Source: Arenicellales bacterium (lineage in GTDB: Bacteria > Pseudomonadota > Gammaproteobacteria > Arenicellales > JAJDZL01). From it: DNA of 64,000 nucleotides. The notes under the pieces were generated by a model that worked only from the letters and a program-made list of their open reading frames with translations, was not told where the DNA came from and did not search any database. The position numbers and the translations under genes were made by a program. The stretch's first letter is position 1; each line of letters opens with the position of its first letter. The stretch is taken from assembly GCA_965213865.1 (NCBI GenBank), contig OZ243928.1, forward strand, positions 2,825,003 through 2,889,002, in the 5' to 3' direction. This document shows, piece after piece, positions 5,166-63,872 of the stretch.

Positions 5166-6194
5166 TTACAGGCCGTCGCGAACTTCAAGGCCTAATTCTT
5201 TCGAGGCGCTGGCGTAAACTCCCAGTGAATCTTCAAGAATCTTGATCGTATCCTCACGGCTGCGGAATGAGTCAACGATGTCAAGGCTTTTACGTACGAC
5301 AAACTCCTGATGCTCTTCTGATCGATAGGCTTGCGCGAAGACTTCCGCCAGATACTCAATAATTTCTTGCGGCGCGCCTTTCTTGATGAACATTCCTCGG
5401 AAGCGCAGCAGCGGATCCCAATCTAAACCATAGTCTTGCCCCAATGCCGGCGTATCCGGAAAGTTTTCAAAGCGCGTTGGCCAAAGCGCCAGTATCGGCT
5501 TGAGCGACCCGCCTTCAACGAACTTCGATACGTCCCCCGGCTGTTCCATCAGCAGATCCAGCTGTCCGCCGACGACGGCGCCGAAACGCTCGCCTGATTT
5601 GCCAGTCAGCACTTGCCTTGACTTGAATCCGAAGTGATTCTCAACCACGGCCATGCTGATCAGCTCAAGCGGAATATTAATATTTGACACGGTCAGCTTG
5701 CCTTCTTCCTGCTGCGCATAGGCAACGAGCTTGTCCCAATCCGGCACACCATCGGTCTGAAACCGCTGGTCCTCAGCATTGATGAACAGCATTGTCGGTG
5801 CGACATTCATAATCACCAGCGGCTCCAGGTCGGTCACTGGATTCAAATCGATGCGGCCTTCGACATAACGGGACGCAACAGTATCGATATGCTGCAGCAG
5901 CGTATAGCCGTCAGCCGGCGCTTGCAGAAATTCCGGCAAGCAGTTGAGTCCTCCACCACCGACAATGTTGATTTTATTAATCTTTGCATTCATAATTTTA
6001 GCGGCAGGCCCGGCAATGGCATCCACTGCCTGATCGGAACCGCCCCCTTTTCCGTAGCAGCAAATGACGGTGATAGGACGGTTTGGATAGCCGTCAGGTC
6101 CAGCCGCACTGGCTGGCAGTGACGCTAGCATCCCAATGCCGGCAACTGCCAAGCCGCAGACAGAAGTCAAAACTTTTCCTAAATAAGATTTCAT
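5166..6194 (-). CDS. tctC: Tripartite tricarboxylate transporter substrate-binding protein TctC (Bug family)
   Basis: 342 aa with a signal peptide (MKSYLGKVLTSVCGLAVAGIGMLASLPASA) and a Bug/TctC-like body ('GYPNRPITVICCYGKGGGSDQ'). It is the first gene of tctCBA. Confidence 0.85.
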   Translation of the reverse strand: MKSYLGKVLTSVCGLAVAGIGMLASLPASAAGPDGYPNRPITVICCYGKGGGSDQAVDAIAGPAAKIMNAKINKINIVGGGGLNCLPEFLQAPADGYTLLQHIDTVASRYVEGRIDLNPVTDLEPLVIMNVAPTMLFINAEDQRFQTDGVPDWDKLVAYAQQEEGKLTVSNINIPLELISMAVVENHFGFKSRQVLTGKSGERFGAVVGGQLDLLMEQPGDVSKFVEGGSLKPILALWPTRFENFPDTPALGQDYGLDWDPLLRFRGMFIKKGAPQEIIEYLAEVFAQAYRSEEHQEFVVRKSLDIVDSFRSREDTIKILEDSLGVYASASKELGLEVRDGL

Positions 6195-6288
6195 ATTGGC
6201 ATTACTCCATAGTTTGAATCGAATACTTGCCGGCTCCTGCGGTCAGTTCCCAAGGCCGGCAAGTTATCTCAGCTGCGATTTATAACCG

Positions 6289-6318
6289 AAATTCAGTTTT
6301 GAATTGAAAAATTCAGTT
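6289..6318 (-). promoter_or_regulatory. Direct repeats in the tctC upstream region (candidate response-regulator site)
   Basis: AAATTCAGTT occurs at 6289-6298 and 6309-6318 (perfect copies in 20-bp register), 95-125 nt upstream of the tctC ATG (6194). A 10-bp-stem hairpin (ACTTGCCGGC 6225-6234 / GCCGGCAAGT 6255-6264) lies between the repeats and the start codon. Confidence 0.3.
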
Positions 6319-6479
6319 CATTTTTGCATACCAATGCGGCATCACTCGTGCAGCCTCGACAGAATTCGATCGATCTTGGCCGCAGCGCCTGCCCGCGGAC
6401 TTCTATCAAACTTGACTCTTGCACCGCGAGGCGAGAGACTCTGCATGACTGTCAACCGACAAAGTTTGCCCGCTAGCAA

Positions 6480-6882
6480 TCACACGATCCATTCGCAGCC
6501 CGCTGACTGTGCCGGGCAGATTGCATCGACGCAAATCCCATATTCTCCGGCCTCTGTCGCGAGTGACCTGGCGCGCCCGGTCACGCTCCGCCTCGCGGAC
6601 GCGCAGGGCGACCGCAACGGGCCGCCATGCATTTCTGCGGTCGACGATAGATTCACAATTGAGCCGCAGCGTCTCGGTCCAATCTCGCAGTGTCAGGTCC
6701 TCGAGCCTGCTGCTGCTCGGCCTAGCAACTCCGGCATTATCGACCAGCATGCCGGGCACAACGCATGTTTCATCCAGTACGTGATCAAGCTGCATATCCA
6801 TATCGGCATCGCAACAGACAGCAGCTGTGCAGTGTTTCAGCCGATGCCAGCTGCCGCCCCTGTTACCAGTGCGTATTGACTC
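6480..6882 (-). pseudogene. Decayed short-chain dehydrogenase/reductase (SDR) remnant
   Basis: My minus-strand translation gives, in one frame (6882 down to ~6660), '..RTGNRGGSWHRL..MLVDNAGVARPSSSRLEDLTLRDWTETLRLN'. This carries TGxxxGxG-like and NNAG-like motifs, but their spacing is too short. After a frame change (6659 down to 6480) it reads 'IVNLSSTAEMHGGPLRSPCASARRSVTGRARSLATEAGEYGICVDAICPAQ..*'. That is the SDR IVNxSS...YxxxK...GIRVNAxxPG block, with the catalytic Tyr/Lys read as Cys/Arg. The remnant therefore shows internal deletions, a frameshift and lost catalytic residues. Confidence 0.6.
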
Positions 6883-15152: not shown

Positions 15153-15697
15153 CAAATCGCGAATGTGTCCGAAAGTTTCTCATGACAATCCGCTTGATTG
15201 CTGCGGCCGCCTGGAACTGCGGGAAGCTGGCTCAACCGATTTGTCGGGCAGCAAAAAGAGTCACTGATCTGCCGCGGCCCGCTCAGGAACGGAATTCTTT
15301 CTTTGGATGTCTTCGTCTGCAGCGCACCTCATGCCGAAAGCCTCTCGCGAACAGAGGCGCCAGTGGCCGGGACTTTCCAGAATGTTGGATGCAAGCGGAC
15401 ATGACAGGGATGATTTTCGGTCTCAACAAGGACGTTCCTGCACTTGACACTAATCAATAATCAAGTCACGGCGGACTTTCACAATCGCTCAATGCACTGG
15501 TCCGTGACAGACTGATGAGCCGACCTCAGTGAGCAGCGCAGCGCTCTGGCAGTGAACTCTTGATGCCGCTGTTGCCGGCATGTTCACACAGTTTTTTTCA
15601 TCTGTTTTTCCTCTAGTTCCAAGGTGCCATCATGCCAAAGTCAGAAACCTCATCTGCCAGTGACAAAACAGCCGCCAACATCCACGATGACTTCTTT

Positions 15698-17401
15698 CCC
15701 TGAATCCGCTTTAGAGAAGCCAGAAACAAGAAAAGCCCTGCCAGCATGACAGGCTGGAACCTAAACCCGTCTCGCCCATTGGGTGAAACTGAACCAGAAT
15801 ACGGAGCAAGGCTGATGAGGATTGTACCGCACTGCCGCGAATCGACCGGCGCGAAATTCACCTCCCGAGCCGGACTGACGGCATTGGCGCATTTCATGAG
15901 CAAGCTGGGGCTCAGCGAGCGGCGCGAGCAGCGGTTTCCGGCCGCCGGCAGCCACCGGGGCTGTCGCGCCAGCGAGTTTCTCCATGTGCTTGTGCTGCTG
16001 CTCATGGAGGGCGGGCGGTGTCTGGAGGATGTGCGTAATCTGCACGCCGAGCGGGGGCTGATGGCGCTGCCGGGCATCCGGCGGATGCCCCAAGCCGACG
16101 CCCTGGGCCGCTGGCTGCGGCGGCTGGGGCGCTGCGGCTCAGGCCGCAAGCGACTGGAGCGGCTCAATGCGAGAGTCATCCAGATGGCGCTGGGCGACCG
16201 GCGGCAGGTGACGCTGGATCTTGATGCAACCGCGGCGCTGTGCGGCAAAAGGCATGCGAGGCGGACTTGTCTTGGACAGCGCGGCTATATGCCGATGGTC
16301 GGACACATGGCTGAGACCGGGCCGGTGGCGGCCTCTGATTTTCGCCGCGGCAATCGCCCGCCGGACTATGACAATTTAGGTTTTATCAAGCGCTGCATCC
16401 GGGCCTTGCCGCCGGGGGTGAAGGTGACCCGGGTGCGCATTGATGCGGCGGGCTGGTCCCAGAAAGTCATCGGGTATTGCCAGGATCACGGCATTGGCTG
16501 TGCGATCCGGGCGAGAAGCTGCGATGACATCCGGCATGCGACTGCGAGCAGCCGCGAAAGCGACTGGCAGCCGCTGCGGCGGCGCGGCGGCGCGCTGTCA
16601 CAGAAAGAATCGACGATGCGCATGCTGCCTGTGACGGGCGGCGCTGAGGCGGCGCTCGCTGTGGTGATCCAGCGCCGCCTGAAAGACGAGGCCGATGACG
16701 GCGGGGCGGCTCAGCAGCGGCTGGAGATGCGGTGCGGGGCGGACGATCAGACGATTGACTGCGACCGGCATGTGTATCGCGCGATCGGGACCCATCTGGA
16801 TGTGCTGGACGGCTGGGACGGCAGCGGCATTGTGCGCTGGCACAGCCGGCGCGGCGACCGCAGCGAGAATCGGCTCCGCGAGATGAGGCAGGATTTTGCC
16901 AGCGGGCGGATGCCGTGCAGCGATCATCAGGCCCATGCGCTGCGGCTGTCGCTCAGCGCGTTTGCGTACAGCCTGTCTGTGCTGTTTCGGTACACGCTGC
17001 CGCAGGAGTCTGAGAGCGCCCGCGCCTCGACGGTGCGCTGCCGGCTGTTTGCGATCAGCGGCCGGATTGCGCATCACGCCCGCCAGACGGCGCTGCGGAT
17101 GCGGCATCGTCACCGGCTGCGGCTGGATCGGGTGATGGCTGGCATTGACCGGCTGCTGCCGGCCGCCTGACTCGGCGCCGCTGCCGGCGGCGCTTTCAAT
17201 CTGACAGATAGCAGCGCTCCGCTGAGGGCTGCGCCTGTACTGAATCGGCCGAAAGGCTGTCCAGGCGGCGCCAGTACGCCGCTTGGACAAGCCGATTCCC
17301 AATTTTTCTCACCGCGGCCGATCGACATGTCAAAATCGGGCTCGAAAAAGGTCGAAATCGACCCATCGATGCGAAAATGCCGCTCTAGCGCGGATTTAGG
17401 G
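15698..17401 (+). mobile_element. IS1380-family insertion sequence (1704 bp) with terminal inverted repeats
   Basis: The left end CCCTGAATCCGCTTTAGAGAAGCC (15698-15721) matches the reverse complement of the right end (17378-17401, read as CCCTAAATCCGCGCTAGAGCGGCA). By hand count, 18/24 positions match, including 16 of the outermost 19. The size, the CC-starting IRs and the single enclosed transposase ORF fit IS1380. No target-site duplication is visible (flanks ..CTTT / CAAA..). Confidence 0.75.
15746..17170 (+). CDS. IS1380-family DDE transposase
   Basis: Uninterrupted 474-aa ORF. 'KFTSRAGLTALAHFMSKLGL', 'VTLDLDATAAL', 'RGYMPMVGHMAETGP', 'RVRIDAAGWSQ' and 'VRWHSRRGDRSENRLREMRQDFASGRMPC' follow the IS1380 transposase pattern. 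It is visibly GC-richer than the flanking DNA. Confidence 0.85.
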   Translation: MTGWNLNPSRPLGETEPEYGARLMRIVPHCRESTGAKFTSRAGLTALAHFMSKLGLSERREQRFPAAGSHRGCRASEFLHVLVLLLMEGGRCLEDVRNLHAERGLMALPGIRRMPQADALGRWLRRLGRCGSGRKRLERLNARVIQMALGDRRQVTLDLDATAALCGKRHARRTCLGQRGYMPMVGHMAETGPVAASDFRRGNRPPDYDNLGFIKRCIRALPPGVKVTRVRIDAAGWSQKVIGYCQDHGIGCAIRARSCDDIRHATASSRESDWQPLRRRGGALSQKESTMRMLPVTGGAEAALAVVIQRRLKDEADDGGAAQQRLEMRCGADDQTIDCDRHVYRAIGTHLDVLDGWDGSGIVRWHSRRGDRSENRLREMRQDFASGRMPCSDHQAHALRLSLSAFAYSLSVLFRYTLPQESESARASTVRCRLFAISGRIAHHARQTALRMRHRHRLRLDRVMAGIDRLLPAA

Positions 17402-17408
17402 CAAATCA

Positions 17409-17944
17409 TTATTCGATCGGGATGACAATGGATCGGGCCGGCTCGTACATGATGATAGAGAGATGATGGCCTGAACCCACATCCTCGCCGCGACCAGTAC
17501 TGATCAGCAGATTCACTTCATTCAGCACCTGTCCAGGAAACACCCCATGTTCAGCAAGCAACCCCGCATTGCAGAATTCCGCACGGCCTTTCTCTGTCCA
17601 CCCGCTGCCCAAATTTACTCCGGCGCCCCCCACATAATCCCCATCGCATCGATTATCAGTGTTCAAACTCTGATCGCATGGACTTCCATCCCAGACAACG
17701 GCGCAAACCTCCAGAGGCGGATTGGTGATCGCGCAATCGGAGGGCAGTTGGAATCTGATGATGACTTGGTCATTGGGACTGAATCTACTCGGATTCCCAA
17801 TTGCTGGCCAGGCCTTGGTAATCTTGACATCACTGAGTGTGCACCGGGCCTCTGCCGTTCCGGCGGCCAGAGTCAAAGCCGCCAGCACAAAGGCGATCAG
17901 CGCTGTTAATTGTCGGGGGGGGAGGAGATAAGTAAAGTGCGCAT
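17409..17944 (-). CDS. Small six-Cys secreted protein, 5' end interrupted at a C8 tract (frameshifted / phase-OFF as sequenced)
   Basis: ORF track 17409..17888 has a GTG start and a truncated signal peptide. The ATG at 17944 opens MRTLLISSPPDN*, stopping at 17906-17908. Adding one C to the C8 tract gives MRTLLISSPPPRQLTALIAFVLAALTLAAGTAEA|RCTLSD..., continuous with the 159-codon ORF (178 aa in total). No family recognised. Confidence 0.55.
17915..17922 (-). repeat. Homopolymeric tract, C8 on the coding (minus) strand
   Basis: GGGGGGGG at 17915-17922 on the plus strand, between the ATG (17944) and the signal-peptide core of the gene above. Confidence 0.95.
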
Positions 17945-17981
17945 TTTCTTATTACTCAAAGCGAAAGACTATTAAAATTAT

Positions 17982-18011
17982 ATTCTAACTGAACTTCGCG
18001 GGTTGTGTCAA
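17982..18011 (-). promoter_or_regulatory. Candidate sigma-70 promoter for the gene starting at 17944
   Basis: The minus strand reads TTGACA (18011-18006), 18 nt, TAGAAT (17987-17982), with an overlapping TATAAT (17982-17977). It lies ~37 nt upstream of the ATG. The -35 overlaps the TGA (18008-18010) of the transposase remnant. Confidence 0.4.
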
Positions 18012-19376
18012 ATCAGCAATTCTAATTTTGGCGTGCGGGTCAGTTCATTGGATATTCGGGTGATTTTAAAAATTCGGGTTCTTCTCAGTGCGGCGGGCTC
18101 TCGTTGCGGCGGGGCGGCGAGCTGCTGGGGCCGGGCCACCGTCTTGAGCAGCTCGGACCAGCTCTTGAAATAGATGTATTCGGTCAGCAGATCCAAGGCG
18201 GCAAAGAAGCGCTTTCTGCGAAAACACTGGTGATGCGCGATTTTCCACAGCGTGCACAGCGGGTCGCACACGCCATGGAACGCAAAGGCCAGCAGGTTGA
18301 GCGTGAGCAGCGTATTGGACAGGCCGTTTTTGCCATCGCCGAAATTGTGCTCCATGTGACAGCCTTGGTTCTTGAGCAGGCTGGAGCCCTCGTTCTCGCA
18401 TTTCCAGCGGGCGCGCCCGGCGGCGATGAGGGTCTCGATATTGCTCTCATCGAGCTTGATGGAGGCGATGAGGCGGAACGTCTGTCCCGCGCGGCGCGCG
18501 CCGGCCTGGCGGATCTCAAGCTCGATCTAGCAGGCTTGCAAGGGTTTTTCCTGGCCGTCAGCGGCAGGCGGTGATAAGTCCACCGCCAGCGCTGCTGCCG
18601 GTTGGGCTTGCGCCGGCCCGGGGTCTTGACCATGCGCTCCCGGTGCGGCCAGTCGATGCCGTCGACATAGCTGAACAGCGTGGTGTGGCCATCGGTTTTC
18701 ACGCGCAGGATGAAGTCGGCGCCGGCCGCCAGGATCTTTCTGCACATCGGCTCTTTGGCGTAGAGGTCATCGCCGAGACAGATCGGCCTGAGGCCGGCAT
18801 GGCGCGCGGCGTTGCGGTCCAGCCAGCGGCAGGCGGCCTTGGTCTCGCAGTCCTGCTTGGCGTCGCCGTCCTGCGGGGTGATGAATTCCGGGCGCAGCGG
18901 CACCGCATGCGGGTGGCCGATCCCGACCAGGACCGCCGCCAGCACGCTGTGACAGTATTCGGTGTACTGGGTGTCCTTGCCTTTGTTCTTGACGCGGGTC
19001 TGGCAGTGCTGGCAGTGGATCTCGCGCGAGTTTGAAACTCAGAGCCGTCGAGCGCGATCGGCGTGCGTCCGCCCAGGGCCTGATAGGGCCCGAGAGCGCT
19101 GAAGGTCTGCAGCTGCTCGAACGCCAGGTCGAAGCCGTCATGCAGGTCGGCGCTGTCGATGCGGTCGAGCTGGGCGCGGATGTGAATGTCAGTCGGCAGG
19201 CGCGCGATGCCGAACAGCGAGCCGGCGGCGCTTTTGCCGTTCGCCTTGTGGAACACCCGCTGGTGGTCCAGAAACGACGGCGACTGGATGAAAAAGCACG
19301 AAAACGCGCTCATGACAATATCGTCAAAGCGGTACTGCTTGTTTCGGCCCCGGCGCGGGTCGGGCACCCGGGCGAA
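18008..19376 (-). pseudogene. Degraded DDE transposase (IS4/IS5-superfamily-like; family not resolved)
   Basis: Transposase-like sequence is spread over three minus-strand frames. Frame 1 (to ~19035): 'ARVPDPRRGRNKQYRFDDIVMSAFSCFFIQSPSFL...LFGIARLPTD...ALDGSEF'. Frame 2 (to ~18555): 'EIHCQHCQTRVKNKGKDTQYTEYCHSVLAAVLVGIGHPHAVPLRPEFITPQDGDAKQDCE...FILRVKTDGHTTLF...WRWTYHRLPLT'. Frame 3: 'ADGQEKPLQAC*IELEIRQ...LIAAGRARWKCENEGSSLLKNQGCHMEHNFGDGKNGLSNTLLTLNLLAFAFH', with an in-frame TAG at 18527-18529. That makes two frameshifts plus one nonsense codon. Confidence 0.75.
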
Positions 19377-20015
19377 CACGGCGACGCGCTCGGCGTGCGG
19401 CAGCGCCCGGCAGCGCCGCCCCCAGTTTTGCGCCTTGCGCTTGATGCGCTGGCGGTCGGTGAAGTTTTTCCCCGCGCAGCGCCACCAGTGGACGCGGTCC
19501 GGCGTGAAGCTGAACCACACCCTTTCGGTGACCACCCCGGCCTGGTTCATGACCTGCAGCGCCAGGGTGTTCCAGTCACTGAGGGCGTCGTCATACAGCG
19601 CCGAGCTGCAGCCGCAGATCATCACCGCGCAGGGCAGGCGCCGCACAATCTCAAGCAGCTCCAGGGGGTCGGATTCCTCATAGTCACAGCGGCAGCGGCA
19701 GCGCTCAGGAGCCTTGCGGGCGGAGGCCAGATAGGGCGGGTCGCAAAACACCAGCTCGGTGCCGTCCCAGTCAAACTGCGCCAGATACGCATGGCAGCAG
19801 CCGTGGACCAGCTCCACCGGACAGTGGCGCTCAAATGCCTTGATGGCGCGCCGGTCCAGATCGATGCCGATGCTGCGCAGCGCCGCCGGCTTTCTCTGCA
19901 TGATGCGCCCGTTGCCCAGGTGCGACTCGATGAAAGTCGCATGGGGCGGCATCAGGGCGATCAGCGGCTGGCACAGTCCTGAGGTGGCTTTGGAGCCGAA
20001 AAAAAGGTTGCCCAT
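19377..20015 (-). CDS. Dam-like N6-adenine DNA methyltransferase (D12 class) lacking its own stop codon
   Basis: This is the N-terminal ~213 codons of ORF 18699..20015. 'NLFFGSKATSGLCQPLIALMPPHATFIESHLGNGRIM' carries the GxK and FxGxG-like SAM region. 'ELVFCDPPYLA' carries the DPPY catalytic motif (19731-19742). 'GKNFTDRQRIKRKAQNWGRR' follows. The reading frame continues directly into transposase-derived sequence; the boundary (~19376) is approximate. Confidence 0.6.
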
Positions 20016-20623
20016 GGGCCTGAGATCCGCGGTCTGAGATGCAATGGCGGAAAAGAACAGCGGAGCCGGGCTGTTTTGTCAAGCGCGGCGGGCGGAAAAA
20101 ACGCCCGCCGCCGGCAGACAAGGCCTGCATGGAGGTGCAGCCGTAAATCCGGGCCTGCGGCGCGTGAAAAAAACTTGGTGCTGGCGATTCTAAGTCTTTC
20201 AGCTTTTCAAATAAAAATAGCTGTTACAGCAGCTTGATGCGCTGCAGGCGGTGAGGAGACTGGGCAGTCAAGCCAAAATTAGAACTGCTGGGCGGCCAGT
20301 CAGACGGATAGTTTTTCGGAGAGTTTTCAGCAAATGCACTGGTGCGGTGGCGCACGGGTGAAAATACAGTGGCAGGCAGGACTGGCATGAGCATCATATC
20401 AGCAGCCATGCAAGCATAGTCTGGATTTTCACCCAGCTACGAGTTGCGGCTTGCGGAAAGGATTGACACACCCAAATGGCGATACGCAATCAACCTCAAT
20501 GAACCGGCCTTGCCTGCAACTCGATTCGTGAGAAAAAATCATAAAAGCAGAACTTTTAGCCATCTGCGCTCGCAGCTGAACTGTTTCGAATTCGATCATA
20601 TCCTGTCCAGCTGTTGATCAGTT

Positions 20624-22057: not shown

Positions 22058-22176
22058 TTCTCCTACCCAATCTCAAACGATTATTGAACAATGAACACAG
22101 GGGAAACTGCAGCCTTAAGTTAAAACACTCGACTGCCAAAAATGATTGCCCTGCCGCATCAGGAGCGAAAAAAAAA

Positions 22177-26942: not shown

Positions 26943-27182
26943 TCGAATCGCACTCAGAAATATTCCGCAAGCAGTCGATCTCTGGGGGATCAGCTTTGTC
27001 ATTTGCACGACGCTTGGACTTTGTTTGACAGATTGCAGGAACCACAGCGGCACCTATATCGGCAGCTGCAAATGATCCATTATATTGATCGAAGGCAATG
27101 GCCCAGTTTGAAAATCATCCCATTCTGCGGGCTGGAATTGGTATACTTTACCGGAAGTGTATTCAACTTTGGCAGAGCAAAA

Positions 27183-27894
27183 ATGAAGCATTCAGCAAAA
27201 TTCAATTCACCCCCCCCCTCCTCATCATAAGCGGCTGACGGCCCTCGCCGCGGCACTGCTGGCGCTGCCTGCGGCTGCGCAGGTGGACTGGTCGATTGTG
27301 GGTGGGACAGGACCCGGTTTCTGCACCGGGGGCAAGACTGAGATGCAAGCCACCCTTTTTACCGTAACGAGCACTCCCGATAAAAACAGCATAGGATTGG
27401 GCACGTCGGCGCTTACATCCAATCAGGTCAGAGGCTTTATCGGCGGCGGCAGTTTTTCAAAGGTCGCTCTGAGAGTGCTGGAAAGCGAGACGAACCGGGA
27501 GGTTCGCAGCATAAACCTCGGAGAAGTCAATTTTCCCTCCCCCAGCATAGCGGCGAAGACCCACAACATTGCCGGCCTCAAGCAGAACCGGGCCTATGTC
27601 ACCGTTCTTTCTGCCGGGAATCCGGACCCCAAAAACCGGACTTTCGCGAGGCTGTGCTTCCGCACGGCGGCCGATCTGGAGATCCCCCTTGGCTCGGGTC
27701 GCGGCGACGCCGGTCCCGGCGATTCGTTTTCGAGCGGGTGCTACGCCTTCAGCAAGGACCCGAATCAGATCCGGGCCTGCTTTTGCGGAGCCCGGAACTC
27801 GTCAGGCAGCTGGGCGCGCACGGATGCCGAAGACGGCTACGAGTATATGCTGGGCGCCGCCTGGAGACAAAACGTGGGCTGCACGACGAACTGA
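27183..27894 (+). CDS. Six-Cys secreted protein, 5' end interrupted at a C9 tract (frameshifted / phase-OFF as sequenced)
   Basis: ORF track 27283..27894 has a GTG start and no signal peptide. The ATG at 27183 opens MKHSAKFNSPPPSSS*, stopping at 27228-27230. Removing one C from the C9 tract gives MKHSAKFNSPPPPHHKRLTALAAALLALPAAAQVDWSIVGG..., continuous with the 203-codon ORF (236 aa in total). No family recognised. Confidence 0.55.
27210..27218 (+). repeat. Homopolymeric tract, C9 on the coding (plus) strand
   Basis: CCCCCCCCC at 27210-27218, between the ATG (27183) and the signal-peptide core of the gene above. Confidence 0.95.
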
Positions 27895-27980
27895 CGGCGC
27901 TGCGGGCGATTGCCGTCAGGCGGCTTTCGGCCGGCGGCGGCATCTGCCGGACTGGCTGAGGCAGACCGGCAGCCTGATGA

Positions 27981-28008
27981 CCGGAGGCGGCCTGCGGGCC
28001 GCCTCCGG
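27981..28008. terminator. GC-rich hairpin between convergent genes
   Basis: CCGGAGGCGGCC (27981-27992), TGCG, GGCCGCCTCCGG (27997-28008): a perfect 12-bp stem with a 4-nt loop. It lies between stop 27894 (+) and stop 28063 (-). No adjacent U-tract. Confidence 0.45.
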
Positions 28009-28062
28009 TCCGGCAGTTTCAGGCTGAGGCGCTGCCTGATCGAGCATGTGCGCCGCATCGGT

Positions 28063-55276: not shown

Positions 55277-56240
55277 ATGCACTATCAGCGCTCTTGCCAG
55301 ATTTTTCTGCCGCCGGGTCAATCCACGTTTTTGCGGGGCGCCCGCCAGACTGGCAAATCGACTCTTCTTGCAGGCAAGTTTTTCGAACAGCGTTCGATTC
55401 GACCTGCTCGACAGCGGCATCCTGTTTCGCTTTTTGTCGCAGTCCCGAGCGCCGGGAGAGGAGCCCGAGCCATTCGGAGAAACTGCATTGGCAAATCCGC
55501 TGGTGATTGATGAAATCCAGAAAGTACCTGAGCTGATTGATGAGGTGCATCGGCTGACTGAAAGTGAAGGCACAAGTTTCATCCTTTGCCGCTCAAGCGG
55601 GCGTAAATTGAAAGCGAGCGGTGCAAACACAATCTCTGCCCCTTGACTTGGCGCGAAGCGCCCGGCTTCGGTCTGCTCACTGCAATGAGCACGGGATTGC
55701 TGCCGAGACTCTATGCAAAAAAAAACTCGACGCACAATCGGAACATACGTTCGCGACCACCTGACTCAGGAAGCGCTCAACGAGGCGCTGGTCAGGAAAA
55801 GCGCCGCGTTCTCGCGATTCTTCGACACATTGGCTTTGTGTCACGGCGAGCAGCTGAACTACTCGGCCATCGCCCGTGACTGCGGCGCGGACGCAGTACG
55901 ATTGCCGCTGCGCCAAAGCTCTGCCTGTTCGATGCGGGTGTCGCAAACTATATCACCGACAATTCGATTCTAAGCCTGGATAGCATAGGTTTTGGCAGCA
56001 GTTTCGAGCCCTTATATATTCCTGGAACTGGTCGCGGCAAGCAGCTACTTGGAATGGGAAGAGAAAATCAGTACTGGTGCACAAAAAGCGGGCTTGAGGC
56101 TGATATCATCCTCAGCCGCAGACTGCTGCCCATTGCAGCAAAGAACCGAGTTCGCAATAGAGGCCTCAAAAAGCCATCAAAGCGCACAGAGGCCAGTTTC
56201 AGCCCCGACGCTCGATCATTGTTACCGCTGAGTCAGTGAA
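55277..56240 (+). pseudogene. Decayed AAA_14 + DUF4143 ATPase gene
   Basis: Family-like pieces lie in different frames. 'FLRGARQTGKSTLL' (Walker A) is in the frame of 55277. 'RFDLLDS...LVIDEIQKVPELIDEVHRLTESEGTSFILCRSSGRKLKASGAN' is in the frame of 55368 and ends at TGA 55644-55646. 'HLTQEALNEALVRKSAAFSRFFDTLALCHGEQLNYSAIARDCG' is in the frame of 55713. 'GLEADIIL' is in the frame of 56054. Confidence 0.7.
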
Positions 56241-62400: not shown

Positions 62401-63872
62401 AAGTGTCGGATTCGCGCTCGGAAAAGTTTGTCATGGATATACTGAGCTGGACAGGCGATGCGGGCGTTGACATCGTTATCAACACCTTAAGTGACGATCT
62501 GGCCGCCGCCAACCTCAGAATTCTCAAGCCTGGCGGACACTTTATTGAACTCGGAAAATATAAAAATTCAAAGCAAGTGCATCGACTGATCACAGCATCA
62601 AAACTGTCATTGGGTCTGCATGTGATTGACATTGATCGCATGTGGCATGAGCATCCTGAGCGTCTGTCGAAGATTTTCAAAAATGCGATGCGACTCGCCG
62701 CTGCGGGCAAAATAGCGCTGCCCGCATATCGGTCATTCCCCGCTCAATGCGCCGTTGAGGCGTTCAGATTCATGGCGGGCGCCAAGCACATTGGCAAAGT
62801 TGTCTTGGCACTGCAGGATTTGCACCATGCGCCATCATCACACCTGGCCAGCCCAATCACAATATCCCCCAGCGCGACCTACGTGATCAGCGGCGGCAGC
62901 CGTGGATTTGGACTGGCGACTGCAAAATGGCTGTGCGACCTGGGTGCCGCACACCTGATTGTTATCGGTCGCAATCTGAACAGATGCAGTCATATCAGCC
63001 AGCTCAAGAGTCAATTCAAAACTGCTGGAGTCTCGCTTGAGACGGTGGCATGCGATATTGCTGATTTGGAAGCGCTGCACAATAAAATCAGTCATGCGCT
63101 CGGCAAAATGCCGCCAGTGCGAGGTATTTTTCATTGTGCAATGCAAATTGATGACCGCGCATTGGTCAATCTGGACCTAGACAGCTACGCGACTGCGACT
63201 GACACCAAAATCAAAGGCGCCTGGAATCTTTACCAGGCGGTTCCGACTCAAGAACTGGATCTGTTCGTGCTGTTTTCGTCCATCACTTCGCTCATCGGAC
63301 CAGCCGGGCAAGGCGCCTACAGCGCCGCCAACGCATTCATTGACTCGTTTGCAAGCTATCTGCGCACAATGGGCATCAAAGCGCTGGCCATCAACTGGGG
63401 AGCCGTTTCTGACTGTGGCCACGTCGCAGAAAGTGCGGCGGCGCAAAAAAAATATGGAGATACGGCTGCAGCTGCGGACAAGATGCTGCAGACGCTTCAG
63501 TGCGCATTGCGGGTACCGTGCGAGTCACAGTATGTAATTGCCGCTGGAAACTGGCAGCAGCAGACGCAGTATGACAGTCTCAGCGATTCATCTGCCACTG
63601 ACGGTGAATGGAGCGAGAGTCCAGAGCAAGCGGCCGATCGGATGACAGAAACAGGTGGAAGCGAAGCTCATGTGCTGAAATGTATTGCGGAGGTTGTCGG
63701 GGTTGCGAGACAAGAAATTGACTTGCAGGAATCACTGGCTGATCTTGGAATTGACAGCTTGCAAGCAGTTGAGCTGTCTCACCAGCTCCGACTTGAGAGC
63801 GGACTCCATATCAGCGCTACAGCGCTGCTGGAATCTTCATCGATAAAGGATATTGTCAAGCGCGCGCCTTAA
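56436..63872 (+). CDS. Type I polyketide synthase, single fully reducing module with C-methyltransferase: KS-AT-DH-MT-ER-KR-ACP
   Basis: Uninterrupted 2478-aa ORF. All seven domains carry their signature motifs (see the domain features below). There is no thioesterase or reductase release domain after the ACP. Confidence 0.95.
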   Translation: MIMPSTAPVAVIAMACNFPGGASTPDQYWKNIIVRRDCVGPIPSNRWDRAIFDSIGLSKATEFAEVGGFIDDIGKFDAALFQISPKEAQQIDPQQRLLLELAWQCAENAGVSANLLSNKRASVHVGVINHDYERLLLADQQSISAYTGLGRSASIAANRISYHFSLTGPSMTIDTACSSSLVAVNAACQALSSGKADFAFAGGSNAILLPDSYIEFSRASMLSKSGRCHVFDRRADGFVRAEGGGMVLLKRLGDALADGDPIHAVIASTAVNQDGKTSGLMSPSIGAQIAMMRDALKHSGLTENDIGYIEAHGTGTQAGDTAEITSLSEVYGQSTRHHPCYVGSVKSNIGHTESAAGIAGLIKAILAVSHSIIPPNIHFETPNPAVDFKQLQIPTEAKPWGESMQRPRAAAVNSFGFGGTNAHAIIQQAPVDLPRRKPDTAGHLLLPLSAPSRADLGSFRLRIQNRLDLDNAQNIACTIGRQTLHKFRSGAIVRHDPTAAPQLSFETVKTATAAAVKKDRRLAFVFNGMGSEFGKGAAELYHSYPCFARVADLCDSIAQREYGIDAISSYVQTGQLPPIENLAACHALHFALQVAACELWKDWGIVPQAVVGHSLGEISAAVSVGAISLPGGIKVAIERADALSQFVGAQSMLAAAATQKQAQRIIKANSGALFMAAENSPDDITLSGSPKAIRAVADQLQALGKFYRQLNIPVPFHSPLIEGGKAQFQRSCPVLERRRGTHPWFSSVTGKPIDSSQIDESFWWDNFRNPVRFKDALEAALDSGIDCFVEIGAHPILSHAISNCLKHKQSDGHCLHTLQREQSGLGILYANAAQLFNLGFDLNWAKINPPGQVITNLQRTLHRKFYWLQAAPDAMAPSQIDAISSPCGLLDTRNQKAENCWPLAPDANAAAWLRSHRLHDEVIFPAAGYIEAALEAGQILTRQSPLELFEVKFERMLHLPRHNGAQPLSRCQLRTKKIGAAHQFRFEDAAATQATAFCSGNLRRVESPAPALPDCFSDYPDTEMETEDNALEQIKQGLQNLKIQGDHASWSIDAVRRISGSELIARLSHTEADTMPNRRYLIDPALLDLCLRLPFAAPDTAAIHVPRSWGSLRLYGICSKQVWCRVQANFHESGEAELNLQLLDDKLSWIASAKRLMLAPANASHPASSERLPQLSVPRWAMIDPIVSHAQWFMDQSQRVRRVIQADIQNRAAYYQRDQYYADTTCELTRIVLAFIGDCFATHGFCQRGDSLRLADLATQLKTTERQQPLFCSLVELLYRHQLIEITGSDESPLMEKRLTARRDLPQAGRQAVSEFMQNSKSSQQLSELLLLDRCGKLLPDVLAGEKNGLDALFPNGDMSVLAQFYRASPICRIYNEALSRSVCELLRCWPLRRKCRILEIGGGTGALLSNLYPALSNQRVEYTFTDIASSFVRSQKKACRDTEWLAFAEFDFNSDPLIQGFLEGYFDLVLASDCLHLARDLEFTLSSLQAIMHPGGFLLFSELAAEPDWARLMFGMSGDWWHSAKSTQLHNSPCRSVAAWRQQLESAGFRALEILSDRNDGKPPWHSVYICETKKASAPTRLLNQTVAQQTLILSDDSDFSNALAAAFALESIEHAVSCASRRSSDWRRIRPDCAQDYVTLIENLMAADRLPDRIIMLWNFGAEPAKSKSFEQLAAQTPFALKLAYLIQAYDHLAQPLPLLTLVSSRTHPAADRSMELSDCFDSAIWAIGRTVRNEYPHSKCRIIEVDPKQTDSIDQIVAALAQPPREPELSIRESGRFAPFIEPVSAVESLSHSEQNLTLTCTRPGDLGSLMLTPEAMPSCAENEVVIAVMAASLNFRDVMVALDALPNEAVTQGHAQSSAGIECAGTVIKAGTKVTACKAGDQVAALSKNAISKFVSVNEAFVFPICSRLFHAEQISTIPTALVTALQSFDCLENFENLDSILIHAASGGVGVMLVHLARAKGFKIFATAGSAGKIAFLNSLGVSQVSDSRSEKFVMDILSWTGDAGVDIVINTLSDDLAAANLRILKPGGHFIELGKYKNSKQVHRLITASKLSLGLHVIDIDRMWHEHPERLSKIFKNAMRLAAAGKIALPAYRSFPAQCAVEAFRFMAGAKHIGKVVLALQDLHHAPSSHLASPITISPSATYVISGGSRGFGLATAKWLCDLGAAHLIVIGRNLNRCSHISQLKSQFKTAGVSLETVACDIADLEALHNKISHALGKMPPVRGIFHCAMQIDDRALVNLDLDSYATATDTKIKGAWNLYQAVPTQELDLFVLFSSITSLIGPAGQGAYSAANAFIDSFASYLRTMGIKALAINWGAVSDCGHVAESAAAQKKYGDTAAAADKMLQTLQCALRVPCESQYVIAAGNWQQQTQYDSLSDSSATDGEWSESPEQAADRMTETGGSEAHVLKCIAEVVGVARQEIDLQESLADLGIDSLQAVELSHQLRLESGLHISATALLESSSIKDIVKRAP
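56451..57719 (+). other. PKS ketosynthase (KS) domain
   Basis: 'TIDTACSSSLVA' (active Cys177 codon at 56964-56966), 'EAHGTGTQAGD', 'KSNIGHTESAAG'. Boundaries approximate. Confidence 0.85.
57996..58925 (+). other. PKS acyltransferase (AT) domain
   Basis: 'GHSLGEISAA' (Ser614 codon at 58275-58277). The specificity region reads 'VPFHSPL' (xxFH, closer to the malonyl HAFH than to the methylmalonyl YASH). Boundaries approximate. Confidence 0.8.
59148..59975 (+). other. PKS dehydratase (DH) domain
   Basis: 'LRSHRLHDEVIFPAAGYIE' is an HxxxGxxxxP-type motif with Asp in the Gly position (His916 codon at 59181-59183). Boundaries approximate. Confidence 0.7.
60453..61025 (+). other. PKS C-methyltransferase (MT) domain
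   Basis: SAM motif I 'ILEIGGGTGALL' begins at 60627. Downstream 'FDLVLASDCLH' and 'MHPGGFLLFSE' resemble motifs II/III. Boundaries approximate. Confidence 0.75.
61833..62816 (+). other. PKS enoylreductase (ER) domain
   Basis: MDR-type fold with the NADPH site 'LIHAASGGVGVMLV' (His codon at 62277). Boundaries approximate. Confidence 0.75.
62874..63425 (+). other. PKS ketoreductase (KR) domain
   Basis: 'VISGGSRGFGLA' is the Rossmann motif. 'QIDDRAL' is LDD-like, suggesting a B-type KR. The catalytic Tyr lies in 'AYSAANAF' (codon 63318-63320). Boundaries approximate. Confidence 0.8.
63657..63860 (+). other. PKS acyl carrier protein (ACP) domain
   Basis: 'LGIDSLQAVEL' with the phosphopantetheine Ser2441 codon at 63756-63758. 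The protein ends 37 residues later. Confidence 0.85.

Follow-up and report, generated by a model that had tools for sequence, protein, structure and literature searches.

Phase variation by slippage in homopolymeric tracts is textbook knowledge for mucosal pathogens. In Neisseria, the poly-G tract of pilC and the CTCTT repeats of opa lie within the leader-peptide coding region of multi-copy families with surface or host-interaction functions. The gene described here (gene 1), located on the minus strand of the 64-kb stretch of DNA that we analysed (the window), resembles these families in that a conserved 5′ module precedes a variable mature part. The proteins have no relationship to one another, however; Neisseria is a human pathogen available in culture, and the neisserial genes are not known to be passengers of IS-type cassettes. 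Our search of the literature on sponges and symbionts in combination with phase variation or contingency loci retrieved no relevant report.

The nanH3 sialidase gene of Gardnerella piotii has a poly-C tract of 8–14 bases beside the signal peptide, and variation of its length within cultures was verified experimentally (bioRxiv 10.1101/2020.09.16.300947). As in nanH3, a C homopolymer adjoins the signal-peptide region of gene 1 and some lengths alone would give a full-length exported protein, while the leader is missed by automated annotation where the genome is out of frame (bioRxiv 10.1101/2020.09.16.300947). However, the tract of nanH3 follows the signal peptide, whereas that of gene 1 is situated inside the n-region, before the hydrophobic core, and, unlike the gene 1 product, NanH3 is a large enzyme located in the cell wall of a Gram-positive bacterium. 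Switching of nanH3 was shown experimentally, while we infer it for gene 1. Homopolymers in 5′ coding regions are also known as reversible inactivators from the poly-A tract of Listeria inlA, where frameshifts exceed the rate of point mutation about 1000-fold (Orsi et al. 2010, PMC2831843). There, as here, an out-of-frame 5′ tract yields a very short peptide (PMC2831843), but those tracts are poly-A or poly-T of up to ∼7 bases, whereas the tracts in our study are poly-C of 8–25 bases, a type strongly under-represented by base composition.

A third related system are the mobile insertion cassettes (MICs), such as Bacillus MIC231 or the TnXax1-type elements of Xanthomonas with TALE/T3SE genes, which are devoid of a transposase and presumably mobilised in trans (PMC4337579). 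The cassettes described below share with them host-interaction passenger genes between IS-type inverted repeats and target duplications. Unlike those MICs, they have IS1-type ends (GGnnnTG), 8-bp duplications and a passenger with its own poly-C switch and leader, and gene 1 of the window has lost both ends.

The following features of gene 1 were located:

17942–17944, minus strand: start codon ATG, homologous to the ATG of the relatives, which have ATG..CACTTTA before the tract in common
17915–17922, minus strand: poly-C tract C8 (G8 on the plus strand), an OFF length
17906–17908, minus strand: premature TAA, which at C8 limits the product to the 12-aa peptide MRTLLISSPPDN
17847–17944, minus strand: leader coding region, 33 aa after repair (MRTLLISSPPRQ / LTALIAFVLAALTLAA / GTAEA), with predicted cleavage before RC
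17412–17846, minus strand: mature protein of 145 aa with six Cys, a predicted all-beta sandwich; the stop is at 17409–17411

The 5′ end of the gene on the minus strand reads ATG CGC ACT TTA CTT ATC TCC TCC CCC CCC GAC AAT TAA, so that start codon, tract and stop are exactly where the original prediction had placed them. It had also proposed that one extra C opens a 178-aa reading frame. In-silico edits bear this out, as C9 joins the ATG to the ORF ending at 17409, and they show that loss of two C (C6) works equally well, while the frame stays interrupted at C7, C8 and C10. The repaired precursor is MRTLLISSPPRQLTALIAFVLAALTLAAGTAEA followed by RCTLSDVK...; the six Cys announced for its mature part are present in the translation. 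The repaired leader had been written as SSPPPRQL, which is one Pro too many: C9 gives ...SSPPRQL..., because the ninth C begins the CGA codon for Arg. Without repair the gene could, as predicted, only start at a GTG in the hydrophobic core, namely GTG 17888.

We consider gene 1 to be probably a slipped-strand phase-variable contingency gene that was caught in its OFF state. In this reading the poly-C tract separates the start codon from the hydrophobic core of a predicted Sec signal peptide, and slipped-strand mispairing in replication would alter its length. At C9 or C6 the full 178-aa precursor would be translated, exported and cut after AEA to release a 145-aa disulfide-rich beta-sandwich protein, while C8 would allow synthesis of the 12-aa peptide only. 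The family would normally ride as passenger of a transposase-less IS1-type cassette, of which the window copy is a putatively stranded member.

Tracts of this kind are exceptional in the window. The only G/C runs longer than six are G8 at 17915–17922 and C9 at 27210–27218, and runs of exactly six occur just twice. Counts of G/C runs drop ∼0.15-fold with each extra base, giving an expectation of 0.08 runs of at least eight in 64 kb, compared to two observed. Both stand 22–27 nt after an ATG, immediately before the hydrophobic core of a leader; the run counts thus confirm the earlier remark that the window has just two C/G runs of eight or more, both in the same gene context. CCC accounts for 19% of the Pro codons in the genes of the window, whereas the tracts use CCC exclusively, and seven consecutive CCC codons would arise by chance with a probability of ∼9e-6. 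The all-CCC run is therefore a feature at the DNA level and not a requirement for proline. The longest A/T runs of the window are A9 at 22168–22176 and 55717–55725, A8 at 63445–63452 and T8 at 237–244.

The gene 1 family is very small. A search of 5.8 billion proteins returned 16 homologues at 50–65% identity and no allele of gene 1 at ≥90% identity, and a profile search of 1.84 billion cluster representatives yielded just 26 proteins at E ≤1e-3. A metagenome scan with the protein profile gave no confirmed relative. The genomic scan for homologues, which comprised one genome per species, located 16 loci, which are distributed over six metagenome-assembled genomes; a single genome has as many as six copies. 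These bins belong to Paracoccaceae, Aestuariivita sp., Ca. Poriferihabitaceae and Ca. Poriferihabitans (the latter Gammaproteobacteria, Arenicellales), i.e. to two proteobacterial classes. Bins of Ca. Poriferihabitaceae were reported from a sponge (PMC12859430), and from just the family name and this report we infer a sponge source of the homologue bins.

A poly-C tract is present at the homologous codon position in 15 of the 16 loci, while L016 has no run. Tract lengths in the 15 loci are 9, 10, 11 (four loci), 12 (two), 13, 14, 15, 20 (two), 22 and 25, so that the C8 of gene 1 is the shortest in a family range of C8–C25. In-frame (ON) copies are L002 (C10), L004 (C22), L010 (C20) and L012 (C12). 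L001, L003, L005, L007, L008, L009, L011, L013, L015 and the window copy are out of frame (OFF) and occupy both wrong phases; these counts leave out L006, which was not phased by the script, and the degraded L014. All 10 OFF copies, including that of the window, keep 151–161 open codons after the AGTAEA motif. One further tract, in L019 from a JGI metagenome, is C11 and in frame. Phase-variable genes are recognised by a homopolymer of at least about 7–8 nt in the 5′ coding region, in which a change of 1–2 bases toggles the frame, and by length-polymorphic alleles or paralogues with ON and OFF forms and intact OFF reading frames. Gene 1 has such a tract, and such a polymorphism is found among the 16 copies. 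The ATG-polyC-leader arrangement recurs in a second, independent family, which is found in this window and in the same bins. The comparative data hence strongly favour a real, conserved hypermutable tract, and the homopolymer-interrupted gene for a secreted protein that was originally predicted is supported by the conserved tract at 15 of 16 loci, the ON and OFF lengths and the intact OFF reading frames. The ON:OFF ratio among assemblies is about 1:2, a value that neutral drift of tract length would give as well.

The distribution of phases also bears on the idea that RNA-polymerase slippage or −1 ribosomal slippage on C8 yields the full protein and that the tract tunes expression. A run of C is formally a slippery site of the X XXY YYZ type, and the homologue tracts of 20–25 bases exceed the RNA:DNA hybrid, making transcriptional slippage plausible there. 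However, since the OFF homologues are found in both wrong phases, no single programmed direction of shift fits them, and we rejected a single programmed frameshift as main explanation. Efficient transcriptional slippage is mainly known from A/T runs of at least nine, compared to which C8 is short; neither a downstream stimulatory structure was noticed nor an Rfam element found in 17300–18100. We therefore regard recoding as very improbable.

Phase variation presupposes that the tract length is correct. Homopolymer indels dominate the errors of HiFi reads, and consensus sequences of the HiFi/metaMDBG type can mis-size long homopolymers. The related bins derive from PacBio HiFi and metaMDBG-type pipelines, an assembly route described for a comparable sponge data set (PMC12859430; contig names e.g. 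ctg10143_232x). The true tract might accordingly be C9, with gene 1 intact and the frameshift a long-read artefact. We consider this quite unlikely, as an 8-mer is short for a systematic error at high coverage and the tract of the second poly-C gene of the window (gene 2) is C9 in two independent contigs. Even if the length were wrong, the conserved and length-variable tract at 15 loci would turn gene 1 into a contingency locus caught ON.

Some tracts have a more complex structure. Two are compound, C15A9 (L006 3932–3955) and C9A8 (L007 3927–3943). L007 also has a 5′ repeat, leader and C25 at 1365–1487, 2.4 kb away from the gene body that bears its own C9A8. The tracts may be sites of recombination, as these compound forms and swapped 5′ modules suggest. 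Among the annotated homologues, about half start with M-x(3-5)-PPPPP(PPP)-RQLTALIA and the remainder were called from inside the leader; relatives at about 25–39% identity retain the PPP.. block at the N-terminus.

Constraint on the window copy is indicated by several observations. No stop or frameshift interrupts the 159 codons of the gene 1 body, whereas stops abound in the alternative frames. The window copy retains 43 of the 48 residues invariant in 15 homologues, the five changes being mostly conservative, and, at the variable columns, agrees with the majority in 47 of 93 cases; it was thus constrained for most of its history. Between clades the mature part shows a dS of ∼0.5 and dN/dS of 0.45–0.78, and between close paralogues dN/dS is about 0.7–2.5 (Nei-Gojobori). 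Values for the window copy against the others (0.53–0.78) are no higher than those among other clades. On the other hand, no other member of its clade has diverged as far as this copy (61–65% identity). In most comparisons pN of the leader is 0.02–0.11, several-fold lower than in the mature part (∼0.26). A leader more conserved than a never-interrupted, fast-evolving body is typical of diversifying families of surface or secreted proteins, to which gene 1 may belong. The coding GC of the family is 55–60% regardless of the GC of the host locus (48–61%), and synonymous sites of alpha- and gammaproteobacterial copies are far from saturation (dS about 0.5). This uniform GC and unsaturated divergence suggest horizontal transfer across the two proteobacterial classes.

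The surroundings of gene 1 comprise the following elements:

15698–17401, plus strand: IS1380-family element with transposase at 15746–17170 (NF033539, E=2e-65), adjoining the 3′ end of gene 1
18014–20290, minus strand: second IS with 22-nt inverted repeats at 18014–18035 and 20269–20290 and a transposase distributed over three or more frames, adjoining the promoter region
17982–18011, minus strand: predicted sigma-70-like promoter TTGACA-18-TAGAAT, matching the consensus at 11 of 12 positions and beginning at a distance of 2 nt from the second IS
17975–17992, minus strand: possible remnant of the inner half of a cassette 5′ repeat, TCAGTTAGAATATAATTT; marginal, with the outer GGTAGTG missing

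The inverted repeats of the IS1380 element are CCCTGAATCCGC... at 15698 and CCCTAAATCCGC... at 17401, without a target duplication (CTTT vs CAAA). The stop of gene 1 (17411–17409) lies 7 nt from the right repeat, as had been predicted, and since the element starts so close to it, the 3′ UTR and 3′ repeat conserved in the cassettes are absent. On the other side, the second IS has weak DDE_Tnp_1 and DDE_Tnp_1_assoc matches and ends 70 nt upstream of the ATG, at 18014, in line with the suggested position of gene 1 directly downstream of the end of a degraded second transposase. No target duplication of this IS was found. Both elements have a GC content of ∼62–64%, compared to 54% for the window. 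Because neither of them has a target duplication, the 612-bp segment with gene 1 lies in a rearranged patch. The promoter had been proposed at the same position, and it is a candidate by its near-consensus match. An Rfam scan of 17300–18100 gave chance-level matches only.

Local alignment of the putative repeat remnant against L005 and L008 scored 24, while shuffled sequences had a mean of 13.7 (sd 2.4) and maxima of 24–26. Terminal repeats of a cassette were thus found at gene 1 only as this marginal inner half, with no 8-bp duplication, and no homology to the missing halves was detected in 15162–15697, 20291–20383 or the sister strain. With both ends lost to the IS1380 element and the second IS, the gene 1 copy would be immobile. 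The earlier description of a gene wedged between two IS holds, but it missed the carriage by IS1-type cassettes and the loss of their ends.

The sister strain is represented by contig L018 of ENA assembly ERZ25070844, which is also the source of the Aestuariivita bin. On either side of the gene 1 locus, L018 and the window are colinear (94.6% and 98.4% identity), while positions 15162–20383 of the window are replaced (L018 1568–3084) by an unrelated insert of 1.5 kb with a different poly-C cassette gene. This gene is on the minus strand and OFF, with C9 at 2424–2432; by inspection, its cassette (gX) extends from 2553 to 1631 with flanks GAAACTTT / GAAGCTTT that match at 7/8. The locus between the TPP-enzyme and TauE genes is therefore a variable island.

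These data could also mean that gene 1 is a decaying relic, stranded by two IS, and that C8 is a fixed frameshift in a non-switching pseudogene. Consistent with this are the loss of both cassette ends and the 3′ UTR, the rearranged patch, the shortest tract of the family and the different poly-C gene of the sister strain, and L014 and L016 are decayed copies showing that members of the family do decay. However, the uninterrupted body between stop-rich alternative frames, the retained invariant residues, dN/dS values like those of other clades and the near-consensus promoter speak against a relic, which we regard as unlikely. For a phase-variable gene 1, the short C8 may mean that its switching rate is low.

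Most other copies of the family have the motif GGTAGTGNCTCAGTTTGAAA ∼85–110 nt upstream of the tract and its reverse complement ∼130 nt past the stop codon. Sigma-54, sigma-32, ECF and CRP-type promoters were compared with the 5′ motif by eye and none fitted; the motif is a terminal inverted repeat. No sigma-70 consensus promoter was found in the intact cassettes. The elements have 20-nt inverted ends (GGTAGTGNCTCAGTTTGAAA) and 8-bp target duplications, but lack a transposase:

L001 3904–4650: cassette, duplication AACCGCGC
L003 3897–4643: cassette, duplication GGATATTC
L004 3878–4634: cassette, duplication GAAGCGCC
L006 3833–4601: cassette, duplication ATTCTTGC
L008 3811–4583: cassette, duplication AAGTAAAA
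L016 5812–6833: cassette with different cargo, duplication GGACAATG
L002 5354–5449: empty 96-bp mini-element of two inverted repeats only (the same as L017 7372–7467), GAGATGTG / GAGATCTG, 7/8
Window 27094–28036, plus strand: gene 2 cassette, TGATCGAA (27086–27093) / TGATCGAG (28037–28044)

Six of the duplications are perfect over 8 bp and two match at 7/8 (the window gene 2 cassette with its L018 copy, and the L002 mini-element). Terminal repeats of the GGnnnTG type are present in L001, L003, L004, L006, L008, L016 and the gene 2 cassette of the window. We call the elements IS1-type on the ground of GGnnnTG ends and 8–9-bp duplications, which we take to be characteristic of the IS1 family (ISfinder).

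The exact 20-nt repeat was found in at least 120 metagenome stretches (L020–L139, JGI and ENA contigs). Some repeat pairs are 130–580 bp apart and resemble mini-elements, while a ∼1.5-kb pair (L042 329–1866) encloses a secreted alpha/beta-hydrolase only. Pairs of ∼3 kb enclose an IS1-family transposase, e.g. L037 1772–4676, with a match to NF033558 below the curated cut-off (E=8e-20) and one to PF03400 above its cut-off; relatives of the L037 transposase are encoded at more than 20 further loci. Repeat pairs with 8-bp duplications but no transposase indicate that the poly-C genes are passengers of IS1-type cassettes. The cassettes belong to the known class of mobile insertion cassettes (PMC4337579), and the carriage of poly-C genes by IS1-type elements is a new result of our analysis.

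The repaired leader of gene 1 has R2 and R11, a 16-residue h-region and A-E-A before R34, judged by inspection with the n-h-c/AXA rules, which call for a positively charged n-region, a hydrophobic stretch of about 10–16 residues and small residues at −3 and −1; AGTAEA is invariant in 17 sequences. A lipoprotein (SPase II) signal was rejected due to the missing lipobox [LVI][ASTVI][GAS]C, as the sequence up to the first Cys is A-E-A-R-C, with Arg at −1. Neither poly-C protein of the window matched Pfam or NCBIfam, and a PDB profile search with the gene 1 protein gave nothing credible (best E=0.13). AlphaFold2 with 16 close sequences reached a pLDDT of 42, and addition of distant relatives (28 sequences) led to a confident all-beta model (pLDDT 91.7, pTM 0.86). 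Foldseek retrieved no match at E ≤1e-3 from PDB or BFVD (viral models). The best, non-significant neighbour was the CLIPPER adhesin domain 9ifr (E=7e-3, TM 0.43–0.48), and other non-significant top neighbours were pilins and Ig-like adhesin domains of antigen I/II, ClfB and SdrD. One profile match lies in a fn3-repeat protein (E=5e-6), and relatives of the gene 2 product have fn3 matches below threshold. We read the model as a disulfide-stabilised beta-sandwich, for which "adhesin-like" is a lead. The gene 1 protein is probably a surface or host-interaction factor.

Taken at face value, two unrelated secreted-protein families with the same start-polyC-leader design are confined to a handful of symbiont-type bins and reside on transposable cassettes. 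It is possible, although we would not yet call it probable, that co-resident alpha- and gammaproteobacterial symbionts share a pool of IS1-derived "plug-and-play" cassettes and that gene 1 is a stranded member of it. Each cassette of such a pool would deliver a 5′ end, start codon, poly-C switch, conserved signal peptide and fast-evolving secreted beta-sandwich. The pool would thereby provide an uncultured mutualistic community with a horizontally transmissible, phase-variable gene set for interaction with host cells or phages. If the switch works, symbiont populations would hedge the display of exported proteins, and the exported poly-C proteins are candidates for the recognition or evasion of host cells or phages. 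In OFF assemblies gene callers truncate or miss these genes, and about half of the database entries start inside the leader.

Gene 2 is located on the plus strand, with ATG at 27183, C9 at 27210–27218 (OFF) and the stop at 27892–27894. C9 gives MKHSAKFNSPPPSSS followed by a stop, while C8 or C11 gives MKHSAKFNSPPPPHHKRLTALAAALLALPAAAQ followed by VDW... up to 27894. Its family comprises 49 homologues in the same genome bins, where an N-terminal poly-Pro is also seen. The gene 2 cassette of the window and that of L018 (9797–10739) share C9 and are identical at all but 1 of 943 nt, so that the tract shows no length variation there, but in a cassette that is otherwise almost identical as well. 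This near-identity despite flanks of 98.4% suggests recent transfer, gene conversion or a sweep. In addition, C9 (L016 5424–5432, minus strand) and C18 (L010 6282–6299, plus strand) directly follow the ATG of unrelated signal-peptide genes, and C13 follows the ATG of another one within the L016 cassette (5812–6833). The hosts of these further tracts are Ca. Poriferihabitans and Poriferihabitaceae bins, whose genomes seem to hold many ATG-polyC-leader genes.
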